Of a stretch of 23,918 bases of DNA, positions 312 to 15,194 are shown piece by piece. This DNA comes from a virus. The notes beneath the pieces are model-generated. The model was not told where the DNA came from. It saw nothing but the letters and a program-made list of their open reading frames with translations, and made no database searches. The stretch is taken from the UHGV virus genome UHGV-0186982. The stretch is one strand, 5' to 3'. A program made the translations under genes and the position numbers. Position 1 is the first letter of the stretch, and every line of letters starts with the position of its first letter.

Positions 312-1319
312 CTACCTGACCTCTTCACGATTATCAAAAGGGTTTAACGCAACGGCAGCATCAAGATGATTGGGGGCGAAATGCGCATACCTCATCGTCA
401 TCATGATCGTACTGTGCCCGAGTATCTGCTGAAGCACTAAAATATTCCCCCCACGCATCATAAAGTGACTTGCGAAGGTATGGCGTAGTACATGGGTACG
501 CTGCCCCCTTGGCAACTCAATAGCGGCTCGTGCAAGCGCTGATTTGAATGCTTCGTATGCTGGAGTAAAAAGTGCTCCGCGTTTTTTGGGTAGCAGCTTC
601 TGTAGCTGTTCAGAAATCGGTACAGTTCGATTTTTTTTGCTTTTGGTCTGCGTAAACGTCAACCGGCCAGGCAGAACCTGAGATTGCTTTAAATCCTGCG
701 CCTCGCTCCACCTTGCGCCGGTCGCCAGGCATATCCGCACTATGACCCCCAAATCCTTATTTGCCGATTGATCGCAGGCCGACAAAAGTCGCACTATCTC
801 CTCATCGTAGAGGAAGGCCAGCTCCTGATCCCCCTCCTTGAATTGCCTGATGCCCGACAGTGGGTTATCGCCCTCCCATTCACCCAACCGCTTCATCTCT
901 GAAAAAACCGCGTGCAGGTACGACTGCTCGCGATTTACCGTCGCCTCACTGAGTTTCTTTTTGCCTTTCTGATTCCACTCACCGGCCAATCGTTTTTCAC
1001 GATAAACCGCAAATGTATTTTTATCGAAGCGAGACGCGAGGGGATCGCCCAGGCGCTCGCAAATCGCCAATAACTTCACCTTGCGTTCATCCCCAGATGT
1101 TAGCGTTTTGCCGTGCATTTCGTACCAGCGCTCAACGAAAGCAGAAAGCGTCACCGCGCTGTCGTTTACCTCCTGACTAGTTGCGTTGTTCATGGTGCGG
1201 CGCTCAAAAGAGAGCGCCTCGCCTTTGGTAGCAAACTGCTTACGAATACGCTTTCCGTCACGACCATACGGAAAGCACTGGCATAACCATTTTCCTGATG
1301 TGAGCTTACGAACGGTCAT
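312..1319 (-). CDS. int: Tyrosine recombinase, P2-type phage integrase
   Basis: N-terminus MTVRKLTSGKW...GRDGKRIRKQF and C-terminal HVLRHTFAS...LGHSTIMMTMRYAH (R..HxxR..Y catalytic region). Start placed at the Met matching the P2 Int N-terminal pattern; the longer ORF back to 1403 would overlap the upstream gene by about 100 nt. Confidence 0.9.
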   Translation of the reverse strand: MTVRKLTSGKWLCQCFPYGRDGKRIRKQFATKGEALSFERRTMNNATSQEVNDSAVTLSAFVERWYEMHGKTLTSGDERKVKLLAICERLGDPLASRFDKNTFAVYREKRLAGEWNQKGKKKLSEATVNREQSYLHAVFSEMKRLGEWEGDNPLSGIRQFKEGDQELAFLYDEEIVRLLSACDQSANKDLGVIVRICLATGARWSEAQDLKQSQVLPGRLTFTQTKSKKNRTVPISEQLQKLLPKKRGALFTPAYEAFKSALARAAIELPRGQRTHVLRHTFASHFMMRGGNILVLQQILGHSTIMMTMRYAHFAPNHLDAAVALNPFDNREEVR

Positions 1320-2502
1320 AATTGAACAAATCCACAAATTTAGGCACTTGCTCTGATTTCCTCTCCCAGTAACACCCAGACTGAAGCAATGATATGAAAT
1401 CATCTTGGGTCATTGAGAGTGTACTTGTTGTTATCAGGCGTTTTTTGGTCTCGTCTGGAGTCAAAAGCTCAACCGTAACAGTACCCGGATCATATGATTG
1501 GCTTTCCATGAGGATTGGTGCATCAGTTAGTTTTCTGGGGGTAATTAGACGATTAGGGTTGAAATCACCAGTAAAGCTTCCTTCAAATGATGCGATGGTC
1601 TCGTAACCGGAGAAACAGTCAAATTGTATTTGCAATACCATCGCATGAGGTAATGTTAAAAACTCACTCCAATCTGTGTAGCCTAATTTGTCACTATAAA
1701 AAGTATCGCCGCGCTGGAACTGGTAAGACGTTCCTTGCGTCCATACATCATAGGTGTTTTTTTCAAATGTTATTTTAGTTAGTTTAATGTCTAGCTTGCT
1801 TTTGAATACTTCTTTGATTGCGAATTTCCATCCGGCTGCATAGCCATCAATAAAGTTTGCAATAAGGGCGGTGCTTCTACGAGGCTCTCTTAACGTTCTA
1901 AATGTAAGGGATAGTGCTTCCAAATCTTTTTTCAGCGAATCTACTTCGGAAGTGATTTTCTCTTCATGAATAACATCTAGCTCAGGCGCTTCGTAGGGAA
2001 TCTCACCAGTCTCTATAAAGGCGATGAACTGTTCTTTGCTTATGATAAAGGCGTTTCGAGCCCTTGCCTCTTCAATCTTCCTCCACCCCATATTATCCCC
2101 TACGCAAAGGAAATATAGGTTTGCAGAAACACCGCCTTTAACAGATAAGTTGTTATTCTTCGCTAATTCGGTTAAATATGCTTTGTCAGCCTGCTTAAAA
2201 CCAGTAAAACAGATTTCTAAATTATTTCCTCTTTCCAATTTACGACTAGGGCGTGGCTGCGTTTTCGGTACGATGGATTCTTTGTCCAAAGTAGCATTAA
2301 GCAATTCATCTTCCGACATGAACATTTTCAGAACTCGATCTTTTCTAAAAGTCCTGAATGCCTTTCGATTAATAGAGTAGCCTTGGAAAAACTCATCTCG
2401 CTCAACTACGCGAGTTACACTTTGCCGTGACACCTCTCCTTTGACATTGATGTAATGGAAGAAAGCATTTTTATCTTCATTGATAAGAGATGAATCAAAC
2501 AT
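1306..2502 (-). CDS. Hypothetical 398-aa protein with a BRCT-like central domain; moron inside the repressor-integrase operon
   Basis: Long ORF in an AT-rich block; strong SD (aaggagtg) 7-8 nt upstream of the ATG at 2502; 14-nt overlap with the int start; central segment NLEICFTGFKQ...VSANLYFLCVGDNMGWRKIEEARARNAFIISKEQFIAFI has the BRCT pattern seen at the C-terminus of NAD-dependent DNA ligase. Confidence 0.75.
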   Translation of the reverse strand: MFDSSLINEDKNAFFHYINVKGEVSRQSVTRVVERDEFFQGYSINRKAFRTFRKDRVLKMFMSEDELLNATLDKESIVPKTQPRPSRKLERGNNLEICFTGFKQADKAYLTELAKNNNLSVKGGVSANLYFLCVGDNMGWRKIEEARARNAFIISKEQFIAFIETGEIPYEAPELDVIHEEKITSEVDSLKKDLEALSLTFRTLREPRRSTALIANFIDGYAAGWKFAIKEVFKSKLDIKLTKITFEKNTYDVWTQGTSYQFQRGDTFYSDKLGYTDWSEFLTLPHAMVLQIQFDCFSGYETIASFEGSFTGDFNPNRLITPRKLTDAPILMESQSYDPGTVTVELLTPDETKKRLITTSTLSMTQDDFISLLQSGCYWERKSEQVPKFVDLFNYDRS

Positions 2503-2544: not shown

Positions 2545-2898
2545 TTAATCGTCACCAGTTTTTACTCGTGGCTTTGATTGCGCAAACGCATCACCAACCG
2601 CCTGTATGTTTAAGCGCGCCGCCTCATCCATCGCGCGGTAGTTTTCTATGAGTTTTTTTTCTTCTTCGCTTTCCGTGACCATGCCATCTGGTTGGAGGGT
2701 CCGTTGCCCAGTAAGTACATACAATATATCAACCCCGATTTTTGCCAGTGCCGAGAGGTATTTTGCATCTGGTGATCTCTCATCTCGTTCGTAGTAGGCC
2801 TGAGAACCACGTGACTGTTCTGCCAGTTTGGCAAAATCTGTTTGATTTAATCCGAGTTTATCCCGCTCCTCGCGAAGCCTGCTTCCGAATGTGGACAT
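2545..2898 (-). CDS. Immunity repressor, HTH XRE-family (cI/C-like)
   Basis: N-terminal HTH LGLNQTDFAKLAEQSRGSQAYYERDE; divergent from the early operon; immediately upstream of int in the same orientation, as in P2 and 186. Confidence 0.8.
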   Translation of the reverse strand: MSTFGSRLREERDKLGLNQTDFAKLAEQSRGSQAYYERDERSPDAKYLSALAKIGVDILYVLTGQRTLQPDGMVTESEEEKKLIENYRAMDEAARLNIQAVGDAFAQSKPRVKTGDD

Positions 2899-4516: not shown

Positions 4517-4741
4517 ATGTCGATCAAGTCAATAAAACTGGATGGCGGAATTAGCGATCCAGAGTTTGTGGAAATAAGCGCCAACGCACGGAAACACGAG
4601 CGCGCTCACGTCCTTGGCATGCTCCGTGATTTTGTCGGTCAGCTGAAAAAGGAAAGCGCCACCCCGGAAGAGATTTATTCATCAATCGAACAGTGGGCCA
4701 ACGCCCGCGAATTAACCATCACTGAGGAAAGCAAACAATGA
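4517..4741 (+). CDS. Hypothetical early protein (74 aa)
   Basis: ATG at 4517 preceded by aggagg; the track ORF begins at an upstream TTG (4496) that lacks an RBS; stop overlaps the next gene start (ATGA). Confidence 0.5.
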   Translation: MSIKSIKLDGGISDPEFVEISANARKHERAHVLGMLRDFVGQLKKESATPEEIYSSIEQWANARELTITEESKQ

Positions 4742-5316
4742 ACCATTTAATGATTGATATTGAAACGCTCAGCACCCAGCCGAATGCGGTAATTTGCGCG
4801 ATTGGCGCAGTCTTCTTCGAACCGTCAACCGGAAAAATCGGCCCTTCGTTCTATCAGACCATTGATCCGCGTACCTCGCAGAATCGTGGCGCTCACATCT
4901 CCGCCGACACAGTGATGTGGTGGCTCCGGCAGGATAAAGAACCTATCAGCGAGCTGGTAGGCGCGAAGTCGCATGAAATTGAGGTGATGCTGGATTTTGC
5001 CAAATTTATTGAAGGCACATTCCCTGAAACCACGAAAAAGAATCTGAAGGTCTGGTGCAAGGGCGGTTCGTTTGATTTTCCGATCCTCAAATCTGCATTT
5101 GAGCGCTCATCGCTCGAAGGCGTGCCTATGCTTCCGTGGGGCTACTGGAATGAGTGCTGTTTCCGATCGCTGCTAACCGTGGCCGGTGTTATCGGTTACG
5201 CCCCCCACCCGCGACGCTCAGTCGCACACAACGCTTTAACCGACGCCATCTATCAGGCCGAGCAGGTTTGCGAGATCTGGCAGCGCCTGACTTCCCCGCA
5301 CCTCGAATCATTGTGA
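4738..5316 (+). CDS. DnaQ-like 3'-5' exonuclease
   Basis: N-terminal LMIDIETLSTQP (Exo I motif, D-x-E) and downstream acidic and His motifs (HNALTDA), as in small phage-encoded exonucleases. Confidence 0.75.
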   Translation: MNHLMIDIETLSTQPNAVICAIGAVFFEPSTGKIGPSFYQTIDPRTSQNRGAHISADTVMWWLRQDKEPISELVGAKSHEIEVMLDFAKFIEGTFPETTKKNLKVWCKGGSFDFPILKSAFERSSLEGVPMLPWGYWNECCFRSLLTVAGVIGYAPHPRRSVAHNALTDAIYQAEQVCEIWQRLTSPHLESL

Positions 5317-5320
5317 GGGC

Positions 5321-6283
5321 ATGACAATGATTAAATCACCCATCAAATGGGCGGGCGGTAAAACCCGCGTCATGCCGCAGCTGCTGAAGCATCTGCCGAA
5401 AGCCGATTGCCTGATTGAGCCGTTCGTTGGCAGCGGTACCGTGTTTATGAACACGGAATACCGCCGCTACGTCCTCTGCGATAGCAACCGCGCGCTGATC
5501 AATTTCTTTCTTGTATTGAGGGATGATACAGAGCGCCTGATAGCGGTTGCCCGCAATATATTTCGGGACGGTAACAAAGCAGATAAATATTACTCCGAGC
5601 GCGAAAAATTCAATTACATGTCATGGTATGAATCAGAAAAGGATTGCCGATCGACATTATGGGCGGCGTCCTTTTTGTACCTGAATCGCCACTGCTTCAA
5701 CGGTCTTTATCGTACAAATCTGGACGGCGGTTTTAATGTGTCATTTGGCCGATATAAACAGCCATATTTCCCCGAAGCCGAAATGCGCTTATTCGCCGAA
5801 AAAGCGCGGGATACCAACGCGCTATTTCTTTGCAATGATTTTCGCACTTCTATTCCGTACATCGCGAAGAATCGCCCGGACTCAGTAATTTACTGCGACC
5901 CCCCCTATATCCCGGCAAGCAAATCCGCCAATTTCACCGCATACGGCAAGCCGTTTACCCTGGACGATCATCGTGCTCTGGCTGCAACCCTGCTCGATGC
6001 TCATCGCCAGCACGGCACCCGCGCGGTGATATCCAACAGCGATACCCCGGAAACCCGCGAGATTTATTCCGCTTTCAACCTCCACGCCTTCAGCGTTCGC
6101 CGTTCCGTTAGCGCCAAAAGCCGCGACATGGCCGGTGAAGTGATCGGCGTGATTCCTGATTCAGTCGACTGCTATACGCGTAGTTGCGCTAGCTGCGAAG
6201 ACGTCGAGGAATGCTTAGCGCCGACAGAGATTTGGATCGGGTTTGATATGGCCGCCGGATTTGATAACGGGGAGCCTTTCTGA
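5321..6283 (+). CDS. dam: DNA adenine methyltransferase, Dam family (D12 class N6-adenine MTase)
   Basis: IKWAGGK...EPFVGSGTVF...LYLNR..FNG...FGRYK.PYFPEAE...YCDPPY...NFTAYG closely parallels E. coli Dam as I recall it; has an extra Cys-rich C-terminal tail (CYTRSCASCEDVEEC). Confidence 0.9.
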   Translation: MTMIKSPIKWAGGKTRVMPQLLKHLPKADCLIEPFVGSGTVFMNTEYRRYVLCDSNRALINFFLVLRDDTERLIAVARNIFRDGNKADKYYSEREKFNYMSWYESEKDCRSTLWAASFLYLNRHCFNGLYRTNLDGGFNVSFGRYKQPYFPEAEMRLFAEKARDTNALFLCNDFRTSIPYIAKNRPDSVIYCDPPYIPASKSANFTAYGKPFTLDDHRALAATLLDAHRQHGTRAVISNSDTPETREIYSAFNLHAFSVRRSVSAKSRDMAGEVIGVIPDSVDCYTRSCASCEDVEECLAPTEIWIGFDMAAGFDNGEPF

Positions 6284-6456
6284 TGAACACGCTTGATGCC
6301 GTTGTGACGCGAATTCTGGACGTTCGCCCATATCGCCATTTCTGGGTCGTCGAGGTGGAGGTGCTGTGCTACGGCGATTACAGCAACACGATCATCATCC
6401 GCGATAGTGAAAAAGAAGCCCGCCAGGTTAAACCCGGCGACACGGTAACGATCTGA
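6283..6456 (+). CDS. Small hypothetical protein (57 aa)
   Basis: ATG overlaps the dam stop (TGATG); reads MNTLDAVVTRILDVRPYRHFWVVEVEV...; below the ORF-track size cutoff; coding status uncertain. Confidence 0.35.
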   Translation: MNTLDAVVTRILDVRPYRHFWVVEVEVLCYGDYSNTIIIRDSEKEARQVKPGDTVTI

Positions 6457-6540
6457 GGTACCGCAAATGAACGAAGAAACCAATTACCGCCGCTTCTGGC
6501 GCAATACCGTGATCTGCTGCGCGCTCTGCTCACTGCTGTT

Positions 6541-7653
6541 TTGGCTCCCGATGGGCTGTCTCGCCTTTCGTGTTTTCTCTGTGGTGTGGGAGGCGCTGTG
6601 GTTGCTTATTACAACGAAATAGACCCTCACGCAGCACAGCACCTGCGCAACCTTATCGACGCCGGCCATATTGCGCCGGGCGTCGTTGACACCCGTTCAA
6701 TTGAGGATGTAACCCCCAATGACCTTATCGGATTCAATCAGTGCCATTTCTTCGCCGGGATCGGCGGATGGTCGCTTGCCTTACGCCGCGCAGGATGGCC
6801 AGACAGTCGCCCGGCATGGACAGCATCATGCCCATGCCAGCCTTTCAGCGCGGCAGGCAAAGGACTTGGGTTTGCTGACGAGCGGCACTTATGGCCCTCC
6901 GCACATTGGCTTGTCGGCCAGCGCCGCCCTGTCGTGGTTTTTGGCGAGCAATCTGGCAGCGCTGACGCAGCGGACTGGATCGACCTTGTACAAGCTGACG
7001 TGGAAGCCCTGGGCTATGCCTTCGGGGCGGTTGCGTTTCCGTCTGCGAGCGTCGGCGCGCCGCACCAGAGAGACCGCGCTTATTGGGTGGCCGACGCCGG
7101 CCGCGAACGAGTTCGAACCGAAGGACTTGCAAAGGCTCTTGGAGAGAAGGGAGAAATTCGCGGCCAAGCATGGAAACAACGGGTTTGGCCTGACACTAGG
7201 GCAGGCGGTGCATCTGTTTGCGGGCTGGCCGACACCGACGGCAACGGACGGGAAAGGCGGTTATCAGGGTGGACGAATCCGCAATGGGAAGCTATCGACG
7301 GACAGGCTAGATGTGGCTGCGCAGCTTGCGGGCTGGCCGACGCCGACCACGAGCAACGACCGCTCGCCATGTCCGCAAGAGGCTATGCGGACGTATCGCG
7401 ACAATGGAACAAAGATTCAGAAGCGGCTTCAGGATGTAGCTGCGTTATGCGGCCCGGCCCGGTTAACGGCTTCTGGAGAGATGCTGATTGGCTCCACGGC
7501 CGGGATGGATGGTGGAGGCCAGTTAGACCCGGATCATTCCCGCTGGCTGATGGGATTCCCGCCAGAGTGGGAAGAGTGCGCGCCTACGGAAACGCTATCA
7601 ACATTGAAGCGGCGGCAGCGTTCATAAAAGCGTATATGGCGGCGGAACAATGA
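6541..7653 (+). CDS. DNA cytosine-5 methyltransferase, apparently frameshifted (motifs split between two frames)
   Basis: Frame 1 has motif I-like FLCGVGG, NEID, PCQPFS (motif IV), PHQRDR (motif VIII) and C-terminal GNAINIEAAAAFIKAY (motif X); the overlapping frame 6719..7627 has WPTP repeats and RWLMGFPPEW (motif IX). Stop overlaps the A start (ATGA). Confidence 0.6.
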   Translation: MAPDGLSRLSCFLCGVGGAVVAYYNEIDPHAAQHLRNLIDAGHIAPGVVDTRSIEDVTPNDLIGFNQCHFFAGIGGWSLALRRAGWPDSRPAWTASCPCQPFSAAGKGLGFADERHLWPSAHWLVGQRRPVVVFGEQSGSADAADWIDLVQADVEALGYAFGAVAFPSASVGAPHQRDRAYWVADAGRERVRTEGLAKALGEKGEIRGQAWKQRVWPDTRAGGASVCGLADTDGNGRERRLSGWTNPQWEAIDGQARCGCAACGLADADHEQRPLAMSARGYADVSRQWNKDSEAASGCSCVMRPGPVNGFWRDADWLHGRDGWWRPVRPGSFPLADGIPARVGRVRAYGNAINIEAAAAFIKAYMAAEQ

Positions 7654-10133
7654 CCGCCGCATCAACTGCACCTCACATCGCGCAGCCAGCTCGCGCTGAC
7701 GCCACCCGGTATGATTACGAGTGGCAGAAGCCGAGACCTGCCATTTATGTTGATAAGACTCCTGCTGTTGATCTGGTTGAACTTGGTCAAGAGAAGGAGT
7801 TTTTGGCGTGGGTAAAAGTCACCCTTGCGCCGCTACCTCGCTTTATTCGCCTGCGTCTGGCTTCCCGCGTCGACAGCATTCACACCATGAAGGGCAGACA
7901 CATCGCCCGCCTGGCGCTGCGCGATATCATCCGCAGGGATCTGCCGCCTATCAATATGGTTAATGAGCAATATGCTATTGCGATGACCGATGAGGCTAAA
8001 TCTCAGGCCGATACGGCATTTAAGGGGTTAAACCCGCTTTATCACACGTTTAACACCCTGCATGGGCTGGTTGAGCGCTTTAATCGCCTGCCGGATTTCA
8101 CGCCGGAAGATGTCGAGCTGCTGGCGCAGGATATCGCCATCTATATGCGGTCTGTGCTGAGTGAAGTTCACGAAACTATAGAGACGCAGAGTGATCGCAA
8201 ATATGCCGGGTACCTTTACACCGAAGCGGCCATCCTCGCGCGGCTTTTCTTCCTGACGCCACCGAGCTGGGGAAAGTATTGTCGCGGCGCGTTGTTTATT
8301 GACGAAGCTACTACCGGCATCAGCAAGATGCTGGATGATCGCTACTGGCACCGCAACCTGAAAAAGTACGCCACGCGCTGGCGCGAGCATCTGCACATTG
8401 CTTTTGGCGATGTGAAACGGGGTGCTGCACCGTATTGCAGCAAGCACCACGTTGACGAGTGGGACGCCAGGCGCAAGCGCAGCCGCGCGATCATGGCCCG
8501 CCTTGAACTGGAAGACCAGGATACCAAAGAGCGCATTTCACTTATCGAGCAGATCGATAAGAGCATATCTAACCCGGCGTTGCGCCGCGTTGAACTTATG
8601 ACCCGTATCGGCGGCTTTGAGAAAGTCGCCACCGAAAGCGGCTACGCGGGTCAGTTTTTTACCCTGACAGCGCCATCCAAATACCACGCATATACCGTAT
8701 TCGGTCATCGTAATGCCAAATGGAACGGCGCCAGCCCAAGATCCACGCAGCGCTACCTTAATCGGGTATGGCAGAAAATCCGCGCAGAGCTGGCCCGCCG
8801 CGAAATCCCGGTTTTTGGTCTGCGCGTGGCCGAGTCTCACCACGACGGTACGCCGCACTGGCATGGCCTGCTGTTCTCTTTGCCGGAACATTCCGCCGAG
8901 CTACTGGAAGTGATGGAAGACTACGCCACCCGCGAGGACGCGGAAGAGTTACAGGGTAAGCATGGCAACCAGCCGCGCTTTGACATGAAGCCTATCGATC
9001 ATGAAATCGGCAGCGCCACCGGCTACGTGGTGAAGTACATCAGTAAGAATATTGATGGCTATGCGCTCGATGGTGAAACTGACGACGAGAGCGGCCGGCC
9101 ACTCAAAGAAACATCTAAACATGCTACTGCCTGGGCTTCATGCTGGGGTATCCGTCAGTTTCAGTTTTTAGGCGGCGCGCCGGTGTCTGTCTGGCGCGAG
9201 TTGCGCCGGTTCCGCAATCAGGAGCAGGCCGACAAGATAAACCCACTGTTTGCCGAGCTACACCGCGCGGCCGATGCTGGCGACTGGCAGCAATACACTC
9301 AATTACAGGGGGGCGCACTGGTTGCCCGCCGCGATCTGCCGCTGCGTATCTGGTACCAGCAGAAAGACGAGCCGAATGATTACGGTGAATATCGCGACCT
9401 CATCAAAGGCCTGATGATGCCAGCCGTTCAGATCCCCCCCATTGAAACCCGCCTGCATTCCTACTCAATCGTAAGGAAGAAACCGGAGGTTTTAGACGAC
9501 TCCGGGCAGGCAGTTGACTTTGATTTTGACCTTCCGGGCGCGTCTGCGCCCTCTAGGACTCGTGTCAATAACTGTACCGAGGTTAAAAAACGAACAAATC
9601 AGCCCCCCGGATCACCGCCATTAATGACAGTGCCAGCTGAGCGGGAAGAGCCTGAACAGTTCGAGATCGGTCAGTTAACACGCGAACAGCGAAAACAGGC
9701 GTTTGAAAGCATCCATAACCACAAACCGCAGCGGCATAAATCCCCCGCCGATGAGTTTGAGGCGCTGGCGTACAGCATTACCGTCGGCGACTGTACAGAA
9801 TTTGACACCCGCAGGGCAGAAAGTTATCTCAAGGCCGCCCAGGAGATTAGGCGGAGAGAACAGGTTTTATCACCGGAAATCGCCGGACTGGCGGGCTTAG
9901 TTCAGTCATGGGCGAAAGTGAAGAAGGTGCTGATCAGTAAACCGCAGGCTATACAGCTGGCGCGCGGTAATGAAGTGACGGTGCTGGATACGGTATATCG
10001 AGCGCATCCGGTTACGGGTGAGTTGATCATTGCAGGCGTTGATAAACCGTGGCGCAAAACTCTTGCAGATCATAAGGCCGGCGAGCTAGCGGCTCGCTGG
10101 AAGAAGGCAGCTAAACGGAAAAATGAGAGGTAA
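7650..10133 (+). CDS. A: Replication initiation endonuclease, P2 gpA family (rolling-circle HUH nickase)
   Basis: HUH motif TPHWHGLLF and catalytic tyrosine motif GYVVKYISKNIDGY; 827 aa; position after the early genes. Confidence 0.9.
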   Translation: MTAASTAPHIAQPARADATRYDYEWQKPRPAIYVDKTPAVDLVELGQEKEFLAWVKVTLAPLPRFIRLRLASRVDSIHTMKGRHIARLALRDIIRRDLPPINMVNEQYAIAMTDEAKSQADTAFKGLNPLYHTFNTLHGLVERFNRLPDFTPEDVELLAQDIAIYMRSVLSEVHETIETQSDRKYAGYLYTEAAILARLFFLTPPSWGKYCRGALFIDEATTGISKMLDDRYWHRNLKKYATRWREHLHIAFGDVKRGAAPYCSKHHVDEWDARRKRSRAIMARLELEDQDTKERISLIEQIDKSISNPALRRVELMTRIGGFEKVATESGYAGQFFTLTAPSKYHAYTVFGHRNAKWNGASPRSTQRYLNRVWQKIRAELARREIPVFGLRVAESHHDGTPHWHGLLFSLPEHSAELLEVMEDYATREDAEELQGKHGNQPRFDMKPIDHEIGSATGYVVKYISKNIDGYALDGETDDESGRPLKETSKHATAWASCWGIRQFQFLGGAPVSVWRELRRFRNQEQADKINPLFAELHRAADAGDWQQYTQLQGGALVARRDLPLRIWYQQKDEPNDYGEYRDLIKGLMMPAVQIPPIETRLHSYSIVRKKPEVLDDSGQAVDFDFDLPGASAPSRTRVNNCTEVKKRTNQPPGSPPLMTVPAEREEPEQFEIGQLTREQRKQAFESIHNHKPQRHKSPADEFEALAYSITVGDCTEFDTRRAESYLKAAQEIRRREQVLSPEIAGLAGLVQSWAKVKKVLISKPQAIQLARGNEVTVLDTVYRAHPVTGELIIAGVDKPWRKTLADHKAGELAARWKKAAKRKNER

Positions 10134-10135
10134 AC

Positions 10136-10693
10136 ATGAAGCATTTCAGCACTAAAGCAATCAGATCAGTTATCGCCGAAATGAACCGGCAGGACGAGAA
10201 ATGGGGAGCTGACCGCGATCAACATCCGTTCGTCTGGCAAACCATTCTTAGCGGAGAGGTCGGCGAATTCAGCCAGGCAATTTTACATGATGAATTTGGA
10301 GGCCATAAATCAGGAACGGCACGCGAAGAGATGGTGCAGATCGCCGCCGTCGCTCTCCAGATTATCGAATATTACGATCGCCGCTGCGCGCCTGCGGCGG
10401 AATCTGAACAAGTTCACCCGGCGCTCGCCATGCCGGCCATCCCGGCGGGGCGTGAAAAAATCGGCGGCTGCGACTGGCTGGACTGGAATCAGCTGTCAGC
10501 GCTCGGTCTTATTGTCCGCATTAACGCAGAAATTCTTCACCCGCTTGGACTGGCAATTTTCCGTGATCCGGCTTCCGGCATCTCAGCGGGGGCCATGATT
10601 TCGCCAGATGGTAAATGGGAGTATGCGCCTGATGTTATTGATGGGCTGCGGGTAAGACTCTCCGATCACTCAGGAAAGCACGGTCACTTTTGA
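10136..10693 (+). CDS. Hypothetical protein, possible MazG-like nucleotide pyrophosphohydrolase N-terminal domain
   Basis: SD gagagg before ATG; LSGEVGEF...AREEMVQIAAVALQIIEYY resembles the paired acidic helices of MazG/HisE-type all-alpha NTP-PPases; C-terminal 100 aa unassigned. Confidence 0.45.
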   Translation: MKHFSTKAIRSVIAEMNRQDEKWGADRDQHPFVWQTILSGEVGEFSQAILHDEFGGHKSGTAREEMVQIAAVALQIIEYYDRRCAPAAESEQVHPALAMPAIPAGREKIGGCDWLDWNQLSALGLIVRINAEILHPLGLAIFRDPASGISAGAMISPDGKWEYAPDVIDGLRVRLSDHSGKHGHF

Positions 10694-10769
10694 CCGTGCT
10701 GGCCATTCTATCGAGCACCGCCATTTTTGGCGGTGCTGCAGGTGTTATTTTTTGGGGAGCGAGAAGGCT

Positions 10770-11465
10770 ATGAGTTATCTGGGAAGCAAAGCGGCCAGCG
10801 GTGTTTATCAAAAAATCATCGCTGAAATGCCGCCGCACGATACCTACATTGAAACGCATTTAGGCGGCGGCGCGATCATGCTGCGCAAACCTCCGGCAAA
10901 AGTGAATTGGGGGATCGATATCGACCCGCAAACCATCGAGGCGTTTAACCAGAGCAACCCTGATTTTCTGGATAGGATGGCGGACACCCTATTTATTGAT
11001 GTTGGGGATGCCGTCGAGTTCTTGTGTTGTTTCGATTACGCCTCCGCCGGCCGCGTCTTAATTTATTCTGATCCGCCTTATCTCCATGAAACGCGCTCCA
11101 GCTCCGCGCGCTATCGGCATGAGTACACCGTTGGTGATCATTACCGCCTGCTGGGATTACTCTGCTCGATGCCGGAAAACGTGAGCGTAATCGTATCGGG
11201 GTATCCTTCTTCGGTTTATGACAACGCCCTGCCGCGCTGGCGCAGCAAGGAGTTTCAGGCCATGACGCGCGGCGGCGTTCGTACAGAGAAAATCTGGATG
11301 AACTACCCGGAAGGCCGGGCGTATTCGCACGCGTTCGCCGGTAAAGACTACAACGATCGCTATCGGATTAAACGAAAAGCGCAGAGATGGAAGGAAAAAT
11401 TTGCAGCGTTACCACCCGCCGAGAGGTTGGCGATCATGGTGGCGCTTGGTGAGGTCGAAATTTGA
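10770..11465 (+). CDS. DNA N6-adenine methyltransferase (second D12/Dam-like MTase)
   Basis: N-terminal YLGSKA and catalytic YSDPPY; ATG at 10770 preceded by gagaagg (track ORF starts at upstream TTG 10752). Confidence 0.8.
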   Translation: MSYLGSKAASGVYQKIIAEMPPHDTYIETHLGGGAIMLRKPPAKVNWGIDIDPQTIEAFNQSNPDFLDRMADTLFIDVGDAVEFLCCFDYASAGRVLIYSDPPYLHETRSSSARYRHEYTVGDHYRLLGLLCSMPENVSVIVSGYPSSVYDNALPRWRSKEFQAMTRGGVRTEKIWMNYPEGRAYSHAFAGKDYNDRYRIKRKAQRWKEKFAALPPAERLAIMVALGEVEI

Positions 11466-11583: not shown

Positions 11584-11937
11584 ATGTTAAATAATCAGGA
11601 TTATGCTTTCATTAACAATACAGTAAATTCAATTAAATCAACAATGATCAGCCTTGCTAGTGAGTACGGCCCTGATTATTGTTCAGATTTTCTGATTACG
11701 TTCGAATCAATTAAAAACAATACGAGTCGGCTACGACTAACGGATGTGACCATTAACGAATACATATCGCTTATTCGTGGTCATAACATGAACGTTCAGA
11801 GCCATCCACAAGGATTGCTGGTACAAGCTCACGTTAGCTCGATTTTGCTGGCTCCGAATGATGCTGTGGCCCTATCGAATTCTCTCCAGATGTTTCGTGG
11901 CCGCGCAGCCCTCAACGGCGATTACGAGAACATCTAA
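11584..11937 (+). CDS. Hypothetical 117-aa protein in an AT-rich island at the tin/old-equivalent position beside cos
   Basis: Clean ORF in a sharply AT-rich block (about 11466..11940) flanked by GC-rich phage sequence; no recognisable motif. Confidence 0.55.
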   Translation: MLNNQDYAFINNTVNSIKSTMISLASEYGPDYCSDFLITFESIKNNTSRLRLTDVTINEYISLIRGHNMNVQSHPQGLLVQAHVSSILLAPNDAVALSNSLQMFRGRAALNGDYENI

Positions 11938-12336: not shown

Positions 12337-13389
12337 TCACTTCGGGGTTTCCAGCAGGGCGTAAGGGTTGAAGCGGATCACCTCTTCACCGAGCCAGTCG
12401 TTAACATGCTTCATCGCTTCCATGACCGGTGTCAGTTCGTTGACCGCGAATACCCTGGCTGCCTTCTCGACGTCGCCGAATGATCCGTTGCCTTCAGGTA
12501 TGGCGCCCATCAGTTGCGGCGGCACGCGGTGAGCCGCAAGCATGTCGTCACGCGTGGAGGACTTCACACCCACAAACTCATCCTTTGCCGATATCTGGCT
12601 GAAGGGCAGGATCTGCACGGCATCTTTGCCGACACCGGGCGCACTCAGCAGGATGTTTTTAAATGCCCCGCCGCGCCGGGTATCGGTCAATGTCTTCTTC
12701 AGGTTCTCCAGGCTTTCCCCGTCAGCCACTGCGCTGCTGACGTAGACAATACAGCCGGCATGCGACCCGTTGTCGTAGTAGAGCTTGCGGAACTTGTCGG
12801 CGGAGTGCGCCAGGTTCGCCGACAGCAGGCCGGCGAAATACTCCGGCATGCCGTAGATCTCCTGGTGAATATCCGGGTTGATCACATGGCACACCGAACC
12901 GGTTTCGAACGGGTGGTCATCAAGGCCAGACTGAATAAACCAGTAGGTGTCTAGGTCGGAACCGCGCCGGGTGTACTTCGCCAGCGAGTTACGAAAGCCC
13001 ATTGGCCCATTCAGGCGGTTGCGCCGCATCTCAAGGTACGCATTGCCGAACACAAACCAGTCGAGCGCAAAGGCGCTGAACGCCTGGCGCGATAACAGTT
13101 TGTGCGGGATAAAGCATCCGGCCAGCACGTTACGCTTGAAGAACAGCGCCGACTGGTGCCAGCTCGCATAGCCGAACTGGCGGGCCAGTCCGTACCAGCT
13201 GATCGGCGTCTCGTAGTACCGGCCATTATTGGCGCAGTACATGTTATCCAGCAGGTCATGAGCACCGGTCACCGGCCACGGGCCGTCGAACGTGAACGCG
13301 CTCAGGCCGGGGGCCGACTTCAGCGCGTCGGCGAGGTCGGCTTGCTCTCTGGCATACTGCCTGCCGCGCGGGGATTTTCGTCTGCTCAT
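12337..13389 (-). CDS. Q: Portal (capsid portal vertex) protein, P2 gpQ family
   Basis: 350 aa; first gene after cos on the minus strand; start overlaps the P stop (TGATG); P2 synteny. Confidence 0.85.
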   Translation of the reverse strand: MSRRKSPRGRQYAREQADLADALKSAPGLSAFTFDGPWPVTGAHDLLDNMYCANNGRYYETPISWYGLARQFGYASWHQSALFFKRNVLAGCFIPHKLLSRQAFSAFALDWFVFGNAYLEMRRNRLNGPMGFRNSLAKYTRRGSDLDTYWFIQSGLDDHPFETGSVCHVINPDIHQEIYGMPEYFAGLLSANLAHSADKFRKLYYDNGSHAGCIVYVSSAVADGESLENLKKTLTDTRRGGAFKNILLSAPGVGKDAVQILPFSQISAKDEFVGVKSSTRDDMLAAHRVPPQLMGAIPEGNGSFGDVEKAARVFAVNELTPVMEAMKHVNDWLGEEVIRFNPYALLETPK

Positions 13390-15110
13390 CAGTACTCCAT
13401 AACAGTCATAGTGTTTCCGCCTTCCTGACCCAGCGGCTCGTTAACGGTGGCGAGCATGGTCGCCCAGGCGAGATCGCCGTGACTCACGCCCCGGGCGCGG
13501 TCGGTGTCGTAGGTGATGACGCCGCCGGGCGTGACCACCTTGCGCACGGCACAGAAAGCGGTGATGAGGTCGTATTCGCCGCGGTCATACTCCCAGCGGC
13601 CAGCGCGGATCAGTTGCAGCATTTTCAGTACCAGCATGCGCTTGCTGGCTGGCGAGAACTGGTAGCACACCGCCGCAGGGAAACGCTTCCTCACGAGCTG
13701 ATAAACCGCCTCACCAATGCCGCTGCCGTCGATACCGATGTGTTGCACGTTGTAGCGTGTGAGCATGTTAATAATCATGGCGGCCTGCGCCTCAAACTCC
13801 ATGCCGCGTACGCGAATGGTTTCAATCGTGCGGAACTTGCCGCTGGGGATCAGTGGCGCCGCGTTAACAGAGATGGCCCCGCTGTCGCCTTTGCCGCTGG
13901 AGCCGTTGGGGTCGTAGCCAATCCACACCGGGCGATCGGCCATTGGTCGCATGGCGTAAGGTTTCCAGTCCGGCCACTCGTCGTAACCGTCTGCGCCGCA
14001 GCTCAGCAGCATGTTGTAGTCAAAGGCGGTCTCACCGTTCTTGATGAAGGTGCAGGCGTAGAGGTTGTCATACTCTTCCGGGCTGTTTTCTTCGCGGATT
14101 TCGTCAATGTCAGTCAGATCCCAGCCGTTATCGACCGCATCCTGCAACGTGACGATCTGGCGCCAGATTTTGTCCGGGCACATCAGCCCGCTGTTAAGCG
14201 TCTTCCAGGACGTGTCGAACTCCACGCGCTTACCGTGGCTGCGGCCTTTGTTGAAGGCTTCACCAGACCAGAAGGGGTACGCTTCGTGACTCTCTGCCGA
14301 TGGCGTGGAGAAGTAGGTGCGCGTCAGTCCTTTCAGCGTCGCCATCGCACCAGCCACTTTCTTCAGGTTGGCAAACTGCCCGACCCAGAAAAATTCGTCA
14401 AAGTACAGGTTGCCGGTGTATGACTGCGCGGTTGCGGCTGACGTGCCGAGAAAGTGCAGCTCCGCGCCGTTGAACAGCTGGATCATGTCACCGCCCTTTA
14501 GCTCAACATCAACTTCAGCAGCAGCGGCACGAATGAAGCTGCGGAACTGGTACGCCTGACGACGACTCGCCGACAGGAAGATCTGGTTGAGCTGGTGCTT
14601 GTATTTCACGTCACCCGTTAGCGCACGCAGCAGCGCCTCGCGGGCAAAGTACCAGGTCGCGCCGACCTGCCGGCTCTTCAGAATGGCCCGGTTACGGTGA
14701 TGAAGGTTTTCATACCAGGTTTTTTGGTGCCAGTGCAGTGAGTCGATGATGCTGGCACGCAGCGCGGAGATCTGCGCCTCTGAAAAGAAGTTTTGTTTCT
14801 TGCGGATCTTCTTCTTCGGCTGCGTCACTGGCGTGCCGTTATCCAGCTTTTTGAGCTGTCGGGTCAGCAGGTCAATTTCCTTGAAGTCGCCCCCGGTCTT
14901 TGTGTCCTTACTGGTGAGCTGGATCAGTCGTGCATCAATGGACGTCGTGACGCGCTGAACTGGCGGCGTGCTGTCCCATTCGTCACGTTTTTTCCATGAG
15001 TAAATCGTATTCTGATTGATACCCATCAGGCGCGCGATTTCCGCCGGGGGGTACCCCTGCCAGTAGAGCTGCCGTGCCCGCAGCATGATGAATGCTTCTT
15101 CAGTCGCCAT
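13389..15110 (-). CDS. P: Terminase large (ATPase) subunit, P2 gpP family
   Basis: 574 aa from ATG at 15110, which has a strong SD gaggagg 4 nt upstream (the track ORF extends to an upstream alternative start at 15182); divergent from O as in P2. Confidence 0.85.
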   Translation of the reverse strand: MATEEAFIMLRARQLYWQGYPPAEIARLMGINQNTIYSWKKRDEWDSTPPVQRVTTSIDARLIQLTSKDTKTGGDFKEIDLLTRQLKKLDNGTPVTQPKKKIRKKQNFFSEAQISALRASIIDSLHWHQKTWYENLHHRNRAILKSRQVGATWYFAREALLRALTGDVKYKHQLNQIFLSASRRQAYQFRSFIRAAAAEVDVELKGGDMIQLFNGAELHFLGTSAATAQSYTGNLYFDEFFWVGQFANLKKVAGAMATLKGLTRTYFSTPSAESHEAYPFWSGEAFNKGRSHGKRVEFDTSWKTLNSGLMCPDKIWRQIVTLQDAVDNGWDLTDIDEIREENSPEEYDNLYACTFIKNGETAFDYNMLLSCGADGYDEWPDWKPYAMRPMADRPVWIGYDPNGSSGKGDSGAISVNAAPLIPSGKFRTIETIRVRGMEFEAQAAMIINMLTRYNVQHIGIDGSGIGEAVYQLVRKRFPAAVCYQFSPASKRMLVLKMLQLIRAGRWEYDRGEYDLITAFCAVRKVVTPGGVITYDTDRARGVSHGDLAWATMLATVNEPLGQEGGNTMTVMEY

Positions 15111-15176
15111 TTGTCCTCCTCGCTTCCTGCCGGGGAGATTAACCCGCGCGCGCGTGCCCTTTCGCCCGCTTTTGGT

Positions 15177-15194
15177 TGTCACAGTTCCCTCACA
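15177..15194. promoter_or_regulatory. P2-type late promoter activator site (TGT-N12-ACA) in the P/O divergent region
   Basis: TGTcacagttccctcACA between the P and O starts; this dyad is the Ogr/Delta-family late-activator site of P2-like late promoters. Confidence 0.5.

Follow-up and report, generated by a model that had tools for sequence, protein, structure and literature searches.

A gene nested in the +1 frame of a cytosine methyltransferase gene of a P2-like Klebsiella prophage probably encodes the missing second subunit of the enzyme

UHGV-0186982 is a viral genome of 23,918 nucleotides (nt), referred to here at its whole length as the window, to which coordinates refer unless a locus label is given; it holds the early and right-end regions of a P2-like (Peduoviridae) Klebsiella prophage. 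A sequence-only reading of this DNA had described three solitary DNA methyltransferase (MTase) genes, and all three were found at the positions given for them. The trio itself is routine; what stands out is that the cytosine-C5 MTase gene contains a second, nested gene that is left out by standard annotation. The annotated frame is designated F1 and the nested open reading frame (ORF), which lies in the +1 frame of F1, is designated F2. PGAP calls F1 only, and F2 had also escaped the sequence-only reading; the C5 MTase described there has motifs I and IV to VIII, but its locus is not one gene but two fully overlapping genes. It is well supported that F2 is a real coding gene, and F2 is probably the missing second subunit of the C5 MTase, a role suggested by its position and by what F1 lacks.

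Selection on F2 was examined using 85 related loci and the window (86 in total, 80 of these fetched from viral contigs). The +1 frame is open over 249 to 380 codons in 85 of the 85 related loci, whereas the +2 frame, serving as a control, has 10 to 32 stops per locus. When the synonymous codons of F1 were permuted, the F2 frame acquired a mean of 4.6 stops and was free of stops in 154 of 17,200 shuffles. F1 is likewise kept open: shuffling synonymous codons of F2 predicts approximately 8 stops in F1 at each locus, and only 1 of 8,400 such shuffles was stop-free. Comparing the window with loci whose F1 is only 43 to 55% identical, F2 similarity was found to be 10 to 15 z units above that of F1-preserving shuffles. 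However, the +2 frame also gave z scores of 2 to 7 in this test though it is noncoding; thus, the test reveals extra constraint on the nucleotides rather than on a specific frame, and the case for F2 therefore rests on the openness of the frame, on codon periodicity, and on the start signal. A single locus of the 86, L032 (IMGVR_UViG_2636416133_000009), has F1 closed early (272 codons) with F2 open, apart from L071, which is cut by the contig end; L032 may represent a naturally occurring loss of the F1 C terminus or an assembly error.

Reciprocal shuffles, in which each frame was assessed given the other, were performed on three segments of the overlap. Both frames are constrained in the N-terminal third (positions 6719 to 7078; z = 6.4 for F2 given F1 and 11.5 for F1 given F2) and in the C-terminal third (7439 to 7624; z = 7.8 and 6.4, respectively), while in the middle third (7079 to 7438) F2 alone is constrained (z = 9.5 for F2 given F1 and 1.4 for F1 given F2). 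The most variable codon position is the third position of F1 in the N-terminal third and the third position of F2 in the middle and C-terminal thirds. Synonymous codon differences in F1 amount to 0.48 before the overlap and 0.64 after it but drop to 0.33, 0.24, and 0.28 within the overlap. F1 and F2 both code for protein and are under purifying selection, with the middle of F1 unconstrained. The openness of the frames, the segment tests, the periodicity, the synonymous variation, and the start signal together show two full-length translated frames and argue against a general frameshift product.

The start signal is embedded in an invariant F1 peptide, (E)RSIEDV. Most relatives encode it as GAA (A/C)GG AGY ATT GAA GAT GTN, which yields an (A)GGAG separated by 8 nt from an ATG in the +1 frame; the rare codon AGG is used for the arginine in 22 of 66 distinct loci, compared with 7% gene-wide. 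In the window lineage, the first +1 ATG is directly followed by TAA, and F2 opens at the second ATG. The resulting two-codon mini-ORF, ATG TAA, thus occupies the F2 start position of most relatives and may serve re-initiation or reduce F2 expression.

The start of F1 is likely GTG 6598, since it has a GGGAGG 4 nt upstream and corresponds to the PGAP start in an 82%-identical relative (L001). F1 matches PF00145 (E = 2.7e-11) and, over its full length, phrog_363 (E = 1e-84); it aligns to M.HhaI residues 3 to 33 and 73 to 173, covering motif I and motifs IV to VIII only. These motifs were identified as FAGIGG (positions 6751 to 6768; motif I), PCQPFS (6832 to 6849; motif IV), FGEQ (6940 to 6951), and QRDRAYW (7066 to 7086). 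In the AlphaFold2 (AF2) model of F1, an ordered catalytic domain and a C-terminal helix are separated by residues 170 to 302 with predicted local distance difference test (pLDDT) values of 25 to 30, and Foldseek comparisons with M.HhaI, DNMT2, and M.HaeIII aligned only ~180 columns. The place following motif VIII, where a target recognition domain is expected, is taken up by ~120 unconstrained residues that are gap-rich in the alignment and predicted to be disordered, and the folded target recognition domain and motif IX that a single-chain C5 MTase has between motifs VIII and X were not found in F1. As the M.HhaI and Pfam matches end at motif VIII, the pLDDT is this low, and the Foldseek alignments are this short, F1 is without a conserved, folded target recognition region. 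Its C terminus, GFWRDADWL..RPVRPGSFPLADG..YGNAI (positions 7468 to 7599), holds a putative motif X; the invariant YGNAI is motif-X-like and is followed by a predicted helix (residues 336 to 350), and no profile scored this segment. The PF00145 match to F1 covers only positions 66 to 160 of the model. Residues 1 to 57 of F1 (positions 6598 to 6770, YYNEID..RSIEDV), which precede motif I, are highly conserved and confidently modeled. Motif I leads almost directly to motif IV, whose usual predecessors, motifs II and III, seem to have look-alikes on the N-terminal side of motif I; for a C5 MTase such an order is unusual.

Three parts of F2 are conserved. The first is a helix-hairpin, GSTLYKLTWKPW..PSGR..RLRASARRT. 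The middle of F2 consists of AGWPTPxAxD modules, which in relatives vary in number from 1 to 6 and are shuffled in order. The C terminus, GPARLTASGE..QLDPDHSRWLMGFPPEW (positions 7451 to 7570), is motif-IX-like and takes the form GPARLTASGE..GQLNPxHSRWLMGxPxEW across the family; by eye only, QLDPDHSRWLMGFPPEW resembles RLTPRECARLMGF, which is C5 motif IX of Dcm, and its L-x-P-x5-WLMGFP lies directly upstream of F1 motif X. In the 86-sequence F2 alignment, the core residues L269, P271, S274, W276, L277, M278, G279, and W284 are invariant or nearly so. A chimera of the F1 N-terminal domain, the motif-IX-like segment of F2, and motif X of F1 raised the PF00145 score to 51.6 bits from a starting score of 45-46 bits. 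F2 is probably the missing part of the MTase because F1 is ordered only in its catalytic domain and C-terminal helix, its Pfam, M.HhaI, and Foldseek matches are partial, and the chimera scores higher.

The explanation of the whole toward which we lean is that of a P2-like prophage with three solitary MTases, of which the C5 gene encodes two proteins, F1 and F2, that form one enzyme. Both would be translated from the early transcript, with F1 supplying catalysis through its S-adenosylmethionine (AdoMet)-binding and catalytic motifs (I and IV to VIII) and F2 binding to F1 and contributing DNA recognition, by means of the WPTP modules, together with the motif-IX-like element. The heterodimer would methylate cytosines in phage DNA and, along with the Dam-like and D12-like enzymes, could shield replicating or packaged DNA from restriction. 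We infer the physical association of F1 with F2, the need for F2 in methylation, and the anti-restriction role. The wider proposal that F2 acts in trans as the DNA recognition subunit in a class of phage C5 MTases that is very large and unannotated, with exchangeable WPTP units carried in the +1 frame, is put forward tentatively, as we regard it as possible but somewhat doubtful.

A related architecture has been characterized in M.EcoHK31I of E. coli HK31, a C5 MTase that recognizes YGGCCR and is a heterodimer (Lee, Kam and Shaw 1995, cited through PMC2836561 and PMC3404938). Its beta chain is read from a different frame within the gene for the alpha chain; the alpha chain holds motifs I to VIII and X and the recognition domain, the beta chain is credited with motif IX, and activity requires the two chains together (PMC2836561, PMC3404938). 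Similarly, F2 of the window lies wholly within F1 in another frame and is itself under selection, and F1, like the alpha chain, has motifs I and IV to VIII and a motif-X-like C terminus, a likeness drawn from the published description. The differences are that the beta chain has 176 amino acids (aa), whereas F2 has ~300 (relatives, 250 to 580) and extends across almost all of the gene; that the alpha chain keeps its target recognition domain, whereas the variable region of F1 is unconstrained and the conserved modules are in F2; and that M.EcoHK31I is part of a restriction-modification system, whereas the C5 gene of the window is solitary and phage borne. The nested C5 pair varies a design for which a single enzyme has been characterized. 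The multispecific C5 MTases of Bacillus phages (SPR, phi3T, and rho11s) are solitary and carry tandem, exchangeable recognition modules in their variable region. Modules varying in number and order are shared with F2, but in the Bacillus phage enzymes they are on the same polypeptide and in the same frame as the catalytic motifs, and the likeness is one of organization. The Rz1 gene of phage lambda has about 60 codons. As is proposed for F1 and F2, the products of lambda Rz and Rz1, one gene lying on the same strand in the +1 frame of the other, work together (PMC9409062); unlike Rz1, F1 and F2 overlap over ~300 codons and are both conserved across thousands of clusters. A natural two-polypeptide split of a C5 MTase in the variable region is also found in M.AquI, where, in contrast to the nested frame of F2, it is sequential, with motifs I to VIII in the alpha chain and the distal variable region and motifs IX and X in the beta chain (PMC3404938).

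Several observations, in addition to the response of the +2 control, weigh against the two-chain explanation. The evidence linking F2 to methylation is indirect. None of the 86 F2 members tested has a Pfam family, nor do they match PF00145 even at E ≤ 1; the F2 profile gave no sequence match in the PDB, and hhalign of this profile with E. coli Dcm found nothing. Searches of NCBIfam and PADLOC with F2 gave no match, and a search with its C-terminal peptide returned nothing. The AF2 model of F2 is too poor to support a fold comparison (pLDDT, 58.5; predicted template modeling score, 0.25), and its Foldseek matches were taken as noise. The gain of the chimera is only ~5 bits, and the disorder predicted for the middle of F1 could partly reflect the shallowness of the F1 alignment used for AF2 (57 to 98% identity). 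The analogy with M.EcoHK31I is incomplete, as its alpha chain retains the recognition domain and its beta chain has only 176 aa. Finally, the F2 start in the window is less certain than that of its relatives because ATG 6719 sits 12 nt after a weak GAGG. F2 could instead be a translated, overprinted protein unrelated to methylation, such as a regulator, an anti-defense factor, or a DNA-binding accessory, with F1 acting alone as a minimal MTase. The lack of detected homology to MTase profiles or structures would fit such a protein, as would the prediction that F2 is largely nonglobular, like many overprinted proteins, and the conserved 60-residue C terminus of F1 could serve as a minimal recognition element. 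However, the catalytic domain and C terminus of F1 comprise only ~235 ordered residues, and in the Foldseek alignment of ~180 columns the small domain of M.HhaI has no counterpart; the conserved F2 modules sit exactly where the target recognition domain is expected, and WLMGFP sits exactly where motif IX is expected, just upstream of F1 motif X. The precedent of M.EcoHK31I also counts against an unrelated function, which we consider unlikely, though with an appreciable chance of being correct.

That the enzyme is a single chain produced by a change of frame, from the N terminus of F1 into the middle and C terminus of F2 and possibly back (through programmed +1 frameshifting, transcriptional slippage, or a phase-variable tract), with the two long ORFs as by-products, is suggested by codon periodicity, which follows F1 in the N-terminal third and F2 afterward, and by single-frame fusions of the F1 N terminus to the F2 C terminus in Klebsiella genomes (P0111 to P0120), joined at a G8 tract of variable length. 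However, this lineage-specific tract was found in no more than 4 of the 86 loci, the window lacks it, and the other fusions, P0171 and P0220, are singletons that are likely assembly errors. A fusion would have no need of an open F2 N-terminal third that is under constraint (z = 6.4) and follows a conserved Shine-Dalgarno sequence and ATG, of an unconserved F1 middle that is still stop-free, or of a constrained F1 C-terminal third (z = 6.4); a single chain is considered quite improbable. Frameshifting or fusion as a general mechanism was rejected on the frequency of the G8 tract and on the window gene having no homopolymer of 6 nt or longer, and an MTase restored by two frameshifts (F1 to F2 to F1) was rejected as inconsistent with selection on the F2 N-terminal third and the open F1 middle. 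A still smaller chance, close to negligible, is given to F2 not being a gene, the frame being open by chance, through G+C content, or through constraint at the nucleotide level (e.g., RNA structure), and spread by gene callers. The gene has a G+C content of 57 to 61%, which lengthens random ORFs, F2 is uncalled by PGAP, and the shuffle scores respond even in the noncoding +2 frame. Against this, F2 is stop-free in 86 of 86 loci where 4.6 stops are expected, and the +2 frame has 10 to 32; phages of Rhodobacter, Burkholderia, Pseudomonas, and enterobacteria share 32 to 52% amino acid identity in F2; the wobble periodicity follows F2 in the region where F1 is free of constraint; and the start signal is conserved.

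The G8 tract at the joining point of F1 and F2 was located at 7516 to 7523 in L001 and at 2923 to 2930 in L007 to L009, which are close Klebsiella relatives. The junctions in P0111 to P0120 differ by one G-encoded glycine (TGGV, TGGGV, and TGGGGV); these differences may reflect either phase variation of the methylase or sequencing error in the homopolymer.

To the distribution of F2 in databases, a tblastn search contributed 217 phage records, including phages of Klebsiella, Escherichia, Salmonella (among them epsilon15), Rhodobacter, Burkholderia, Xanthomonas, and Pseudomonas. Nearly all of the matches listed fall under genes annotated as cytosine or DNA methylases, with a few under generic labels, and in the loci examined they are in the +1 frame of the annotated coding sequence. 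Both ORFs are annotated in the record of phage K1ind3, as "C-specific methylase" and, for F2, "Mte8-like protein"; this annotation and two PHROG families are the traces of F2 in databases, and no paper describing a nested F2 for this phage family was found in the literature searched. At 90% identity the family comprises at least 5,118 clusters; with the F2 profile, 18,515 clusters at 50% identity were matched at E ≤ 1e-3 and 7,471 at E ≤ 1e-30. An HNH endonuclease domain is present in the F2 frame just past WLMGxP in four Rhodobacter-type F2 homologs (P0121, P0125, P0142, and P0409). It was rejected as a feature of the F2 family, the insertions being flanked by duplicated F2 ends; in P0142 the HNH domain is flanked by a duplicated F2 C terminus, which suggests a mobile element that targets the F2 gene.

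Purifying selection acts on both reading frames over approximately 900 nt, in phages of Rhodobacter as well as in Klebsiella prophages, which provides a natural system for the coevolution of two proteins on one sequence. Predicting specificity, cloning the MTase, or assigning methylomes from the annotated ORF alone may fail or mislead. If F2 is the DNA recognition subunit, the current "DNA cytosine methyltransferase" annotations of these genes would cover just one half of the enzyme, specificity and catalysis would evolve in separate frames of a single stretch of DNA, and the pair would rank with the longest and most widely distributed fully nested genes of double-stranded DNA phages (>18,000 clusters at 50% identity). 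Should the F2 modules set specificity, shuffling them would be a simple route by which phages change or widen their protection from host restriction. The split architecture has already been applied to targeted methylation with M.EcoHK31I and would, in that case, gain thousands of natural variants.

Table 1. Features of the window and of its nested C5 MTase locus
Feature	Position	Strand	Remarks
Integrase	312-1403	-	P2-like gene set
Helix-turn-helix repressor	2545-2898	-	P2-like gene set
Rv2179c-like DEDDh 3'-5' exoribonuclease gene	4738-5316	+	PF16473, E = 2e-51; phrog_255 "exonuclease"; directly 5' of Dam; not a restriction endonuclease
Dam-family N6-adenine DNA MTase	5321-6283	+	ATG start, 320 aa; PF02086, TIGR00571, 2g1p
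Dam C-terminal extension	6140-6280	+	Past end of E. coli Dam alignment; conserved end WIGFD..GFDNGEPF
C5 cytosine MTase frame F1, alpha-like chain	6598-7653	+	351 aa from likely start GTG 6598; longest ORF 6541-7653 with TTG start
F2 start region within F1 codons R33-SIEDV-TPN	6694-6721	+	GAGG 6703-6706; mini-ORF ATG-TAA 6707-6712; F2 ATG 6719
Nested ORF F2, candidate beta-like chain	6719-7627	+	302 aa, ATG start, +1 frame of F1; phrog_1008, E = 2e-31; phrog_31772, E = 3e-44
F2 middle, three (L)AGWPTPxAxD modules	7079-7438	+	Modules at 7085, 7223, and 7331; the F1 linker here is unconserved yet stays open
C-terminal segment constrained in both frames	7439-7624	+	Invariant columns in both frames over the same nucleotides
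Example F2 peptide			LTWKPWAMPSGR
Replication nickase gpA	7650-10133	+	PF05840, E = 2e-99; closes rightward early operon
185-aa ORF (DUF7415)	10136-10693	+	Between gpA and third MTase; PF24187, E = 2e-10; PHROGs of unknown function
Third MTase, divergent D12-like (alpha-class) amino-MTase	10770-11465	+	ATG 10770 inside ORF 10752-11465; 231 aa; gpA-gpQ hotspot
117-aa ORF	11584-11937	+	Low-GC stretch adjoining presumed cos region
Portal and terminase genes	12337-15182	-	Followed by capsid and tail genes

The two adenine MTase genes of the window are conventional single-chain enzymes. The assignment of the first to the Dam family, made in the sequence-only reading, is borne out by PF02086 (E = 4e-58; 197 bits against a cutoff of 22; residues 10 to 262), by TIGR00571 "dam" (249.9 bits; cutoff, 114.85), and by E. 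coli Dam (2g1p; E = 8e-65, 222 bits), to which residues 6 to 267 align as the entire catalytic core. The PADLOC match is to an "orphan methyltransferase" (E = 1e-85), and against the equivalog of the host Dam family the protein scores 260 bits, under the cutoff of 441. The catalytic motifs agree with these matches, with WAGGK at residues 10 to 14, the AdoMet-binding FxGxG as FVGSG at residues 35 to 39, and DPPY at residues 193 to 196 (positions 5897 to 5908). The catalytic core, DPPY, and FxGxG are held in common with E. coli Dam (2g1p) and with phage Dam-type orphan MTases; unlike E. coli Dam, the window protein bears an extra, variable C-terminal tail of ~50 residues that is Cys-rich in many relatives. 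The four-Cys cluster noted in the earlier reading, CYTRSCASCEDVEEC, was found with the exact spacing C-x4-C-x2-C-x5-C at residues 284 to 298 (positions 6170 to 6214), outside the E. coli Dam alignment. The suggestion that this tail binds zinc fared less well for the window itself, as the cluster is not conserved in the closest tails, which have C..C..W..H, with Trp and His replacing Cys 3 and Cys 4. For the tail family, a small knuckle that binds metal is nevertheless plausible because many related prophage Dam tails have another Cys4 motif at the same place, VCDGCGRSGGGYCPDCG (CxxC-x8-CxxC). Several Dam relatives end at ..VIGVL and have no tail.

The third MTase gene, which had been read as a second D12-class enzyme, is more divergent than that description implies. 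It falls under the curated cutoffs of PF02086 (18.9 bits against 22) and TIGR00571 (32 bits against 115) and has no sequence match in the PDB. It was counted as an MTase despite these scores because of its matches to phrog_56 (E = 1.5e-36) and PADLOC MTase_II (E = 1e-23) and its motifs in the alpha-class order, YLGSK at residues 3 to 7, HLGGGA at 30 to 35, and DPPY at 101 to 104 (positions 11070 to 11081); from these features it is clearly a genuine MTase and a distant relative of PF02086. Homologs sharing 70 to 93% identity are present in Klebsiella phage 3LV2017 and in Salmonella phages SEN5 and SW5. The homolog in 3LV2017 (L002, 7540 to 8230) is split by a frameshift into two tblastn pieces; the gene may be dispensable, or the 3LV2017 record may be erroneous.

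Scanning of the ORFs flanking the MTases with Pfam, PHROGs, PADLOC, and NCBIfam identified no restriction endonuclease family or other nuclease, save for the DEDDh exoribonuclease and the nickase gpA, in agreement with the earlier claim that no cognate nuclease adjoins the three genes. Solitary phage MTase genes of this kind are ordinarily read as protecting phage DNA from host restriction by self-methylation. Three of them in one prophage are ordinary phage biology, and by analogy they most likely modify the phage DNA, and that of the lysogenic host, as an escape from restriction. The orphan status of the third MTase is the least secure of the three, given its location in a hotspot and its two neighbors without assignable function: the 185-aa ORF had no PADLOC or NCBIfam match, and the 117-aa ORF had no match in any of the four libraries and no homolog among the fetched loci. 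The cos-proximal region between gpA and the portal gene gpQ is a hotspot for defense cargo in P2-like phages (PMC9122126), and both adenine MTases have weak PADLOC matches to PD-Lambda-5_B, so that the third MTase could, with one or both neighbors, form a restriction-modification-like or other defense cassette. Such a cassette seems improbable, however, as the homolog in phage 3LV2017 stands without either neighbor, the searches turned up neither a nuclease motif nor a nuclease family, and proteins of 117 and 185 aa are small for a restriction endonuclease.

The nearest relatives of the window are Klebsiella prophages and Klebsiella phage 3LV2017, and the best protein match of the C5 MTase is from K. 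pneumoniae (98% identity). The same MTase trio was found again within the Peduoviridae, for example in 3LV2017 and in Salmonella phages SEN5 and SW5. In the early operon, which holds the Dam and C5 genes, translation of both is coupled to that of the neighboring genes, with the F1 stop overlapping the gpA start (ATGA). Two small ORFs are located between the Dam and C5 genes, and both are kept in the Klebsiella relatives: one of 57 aa (6283 to 6456; phrog_8110) starts on the Dam stop (TGATG), and the other, of 51 aa (6467 to 6622), is hydrophobic. Between the integrase and repressor genes, an ORF of 398 aa on the minus strand (1306 to 2502) has a low GC content of about 40 to 44% and overlaps the end of the annotated integrase ORF by about 100 nt. 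Its matches are weak, being to BRCT/LigA C-terminus models (Pfam, E = 0.004; NCBIfam, E = 4e-5) and to PADLOC PDC-S48 (E = 4e-5). The ORF has the look of acquired cargo (a moron) and may be related to defense.

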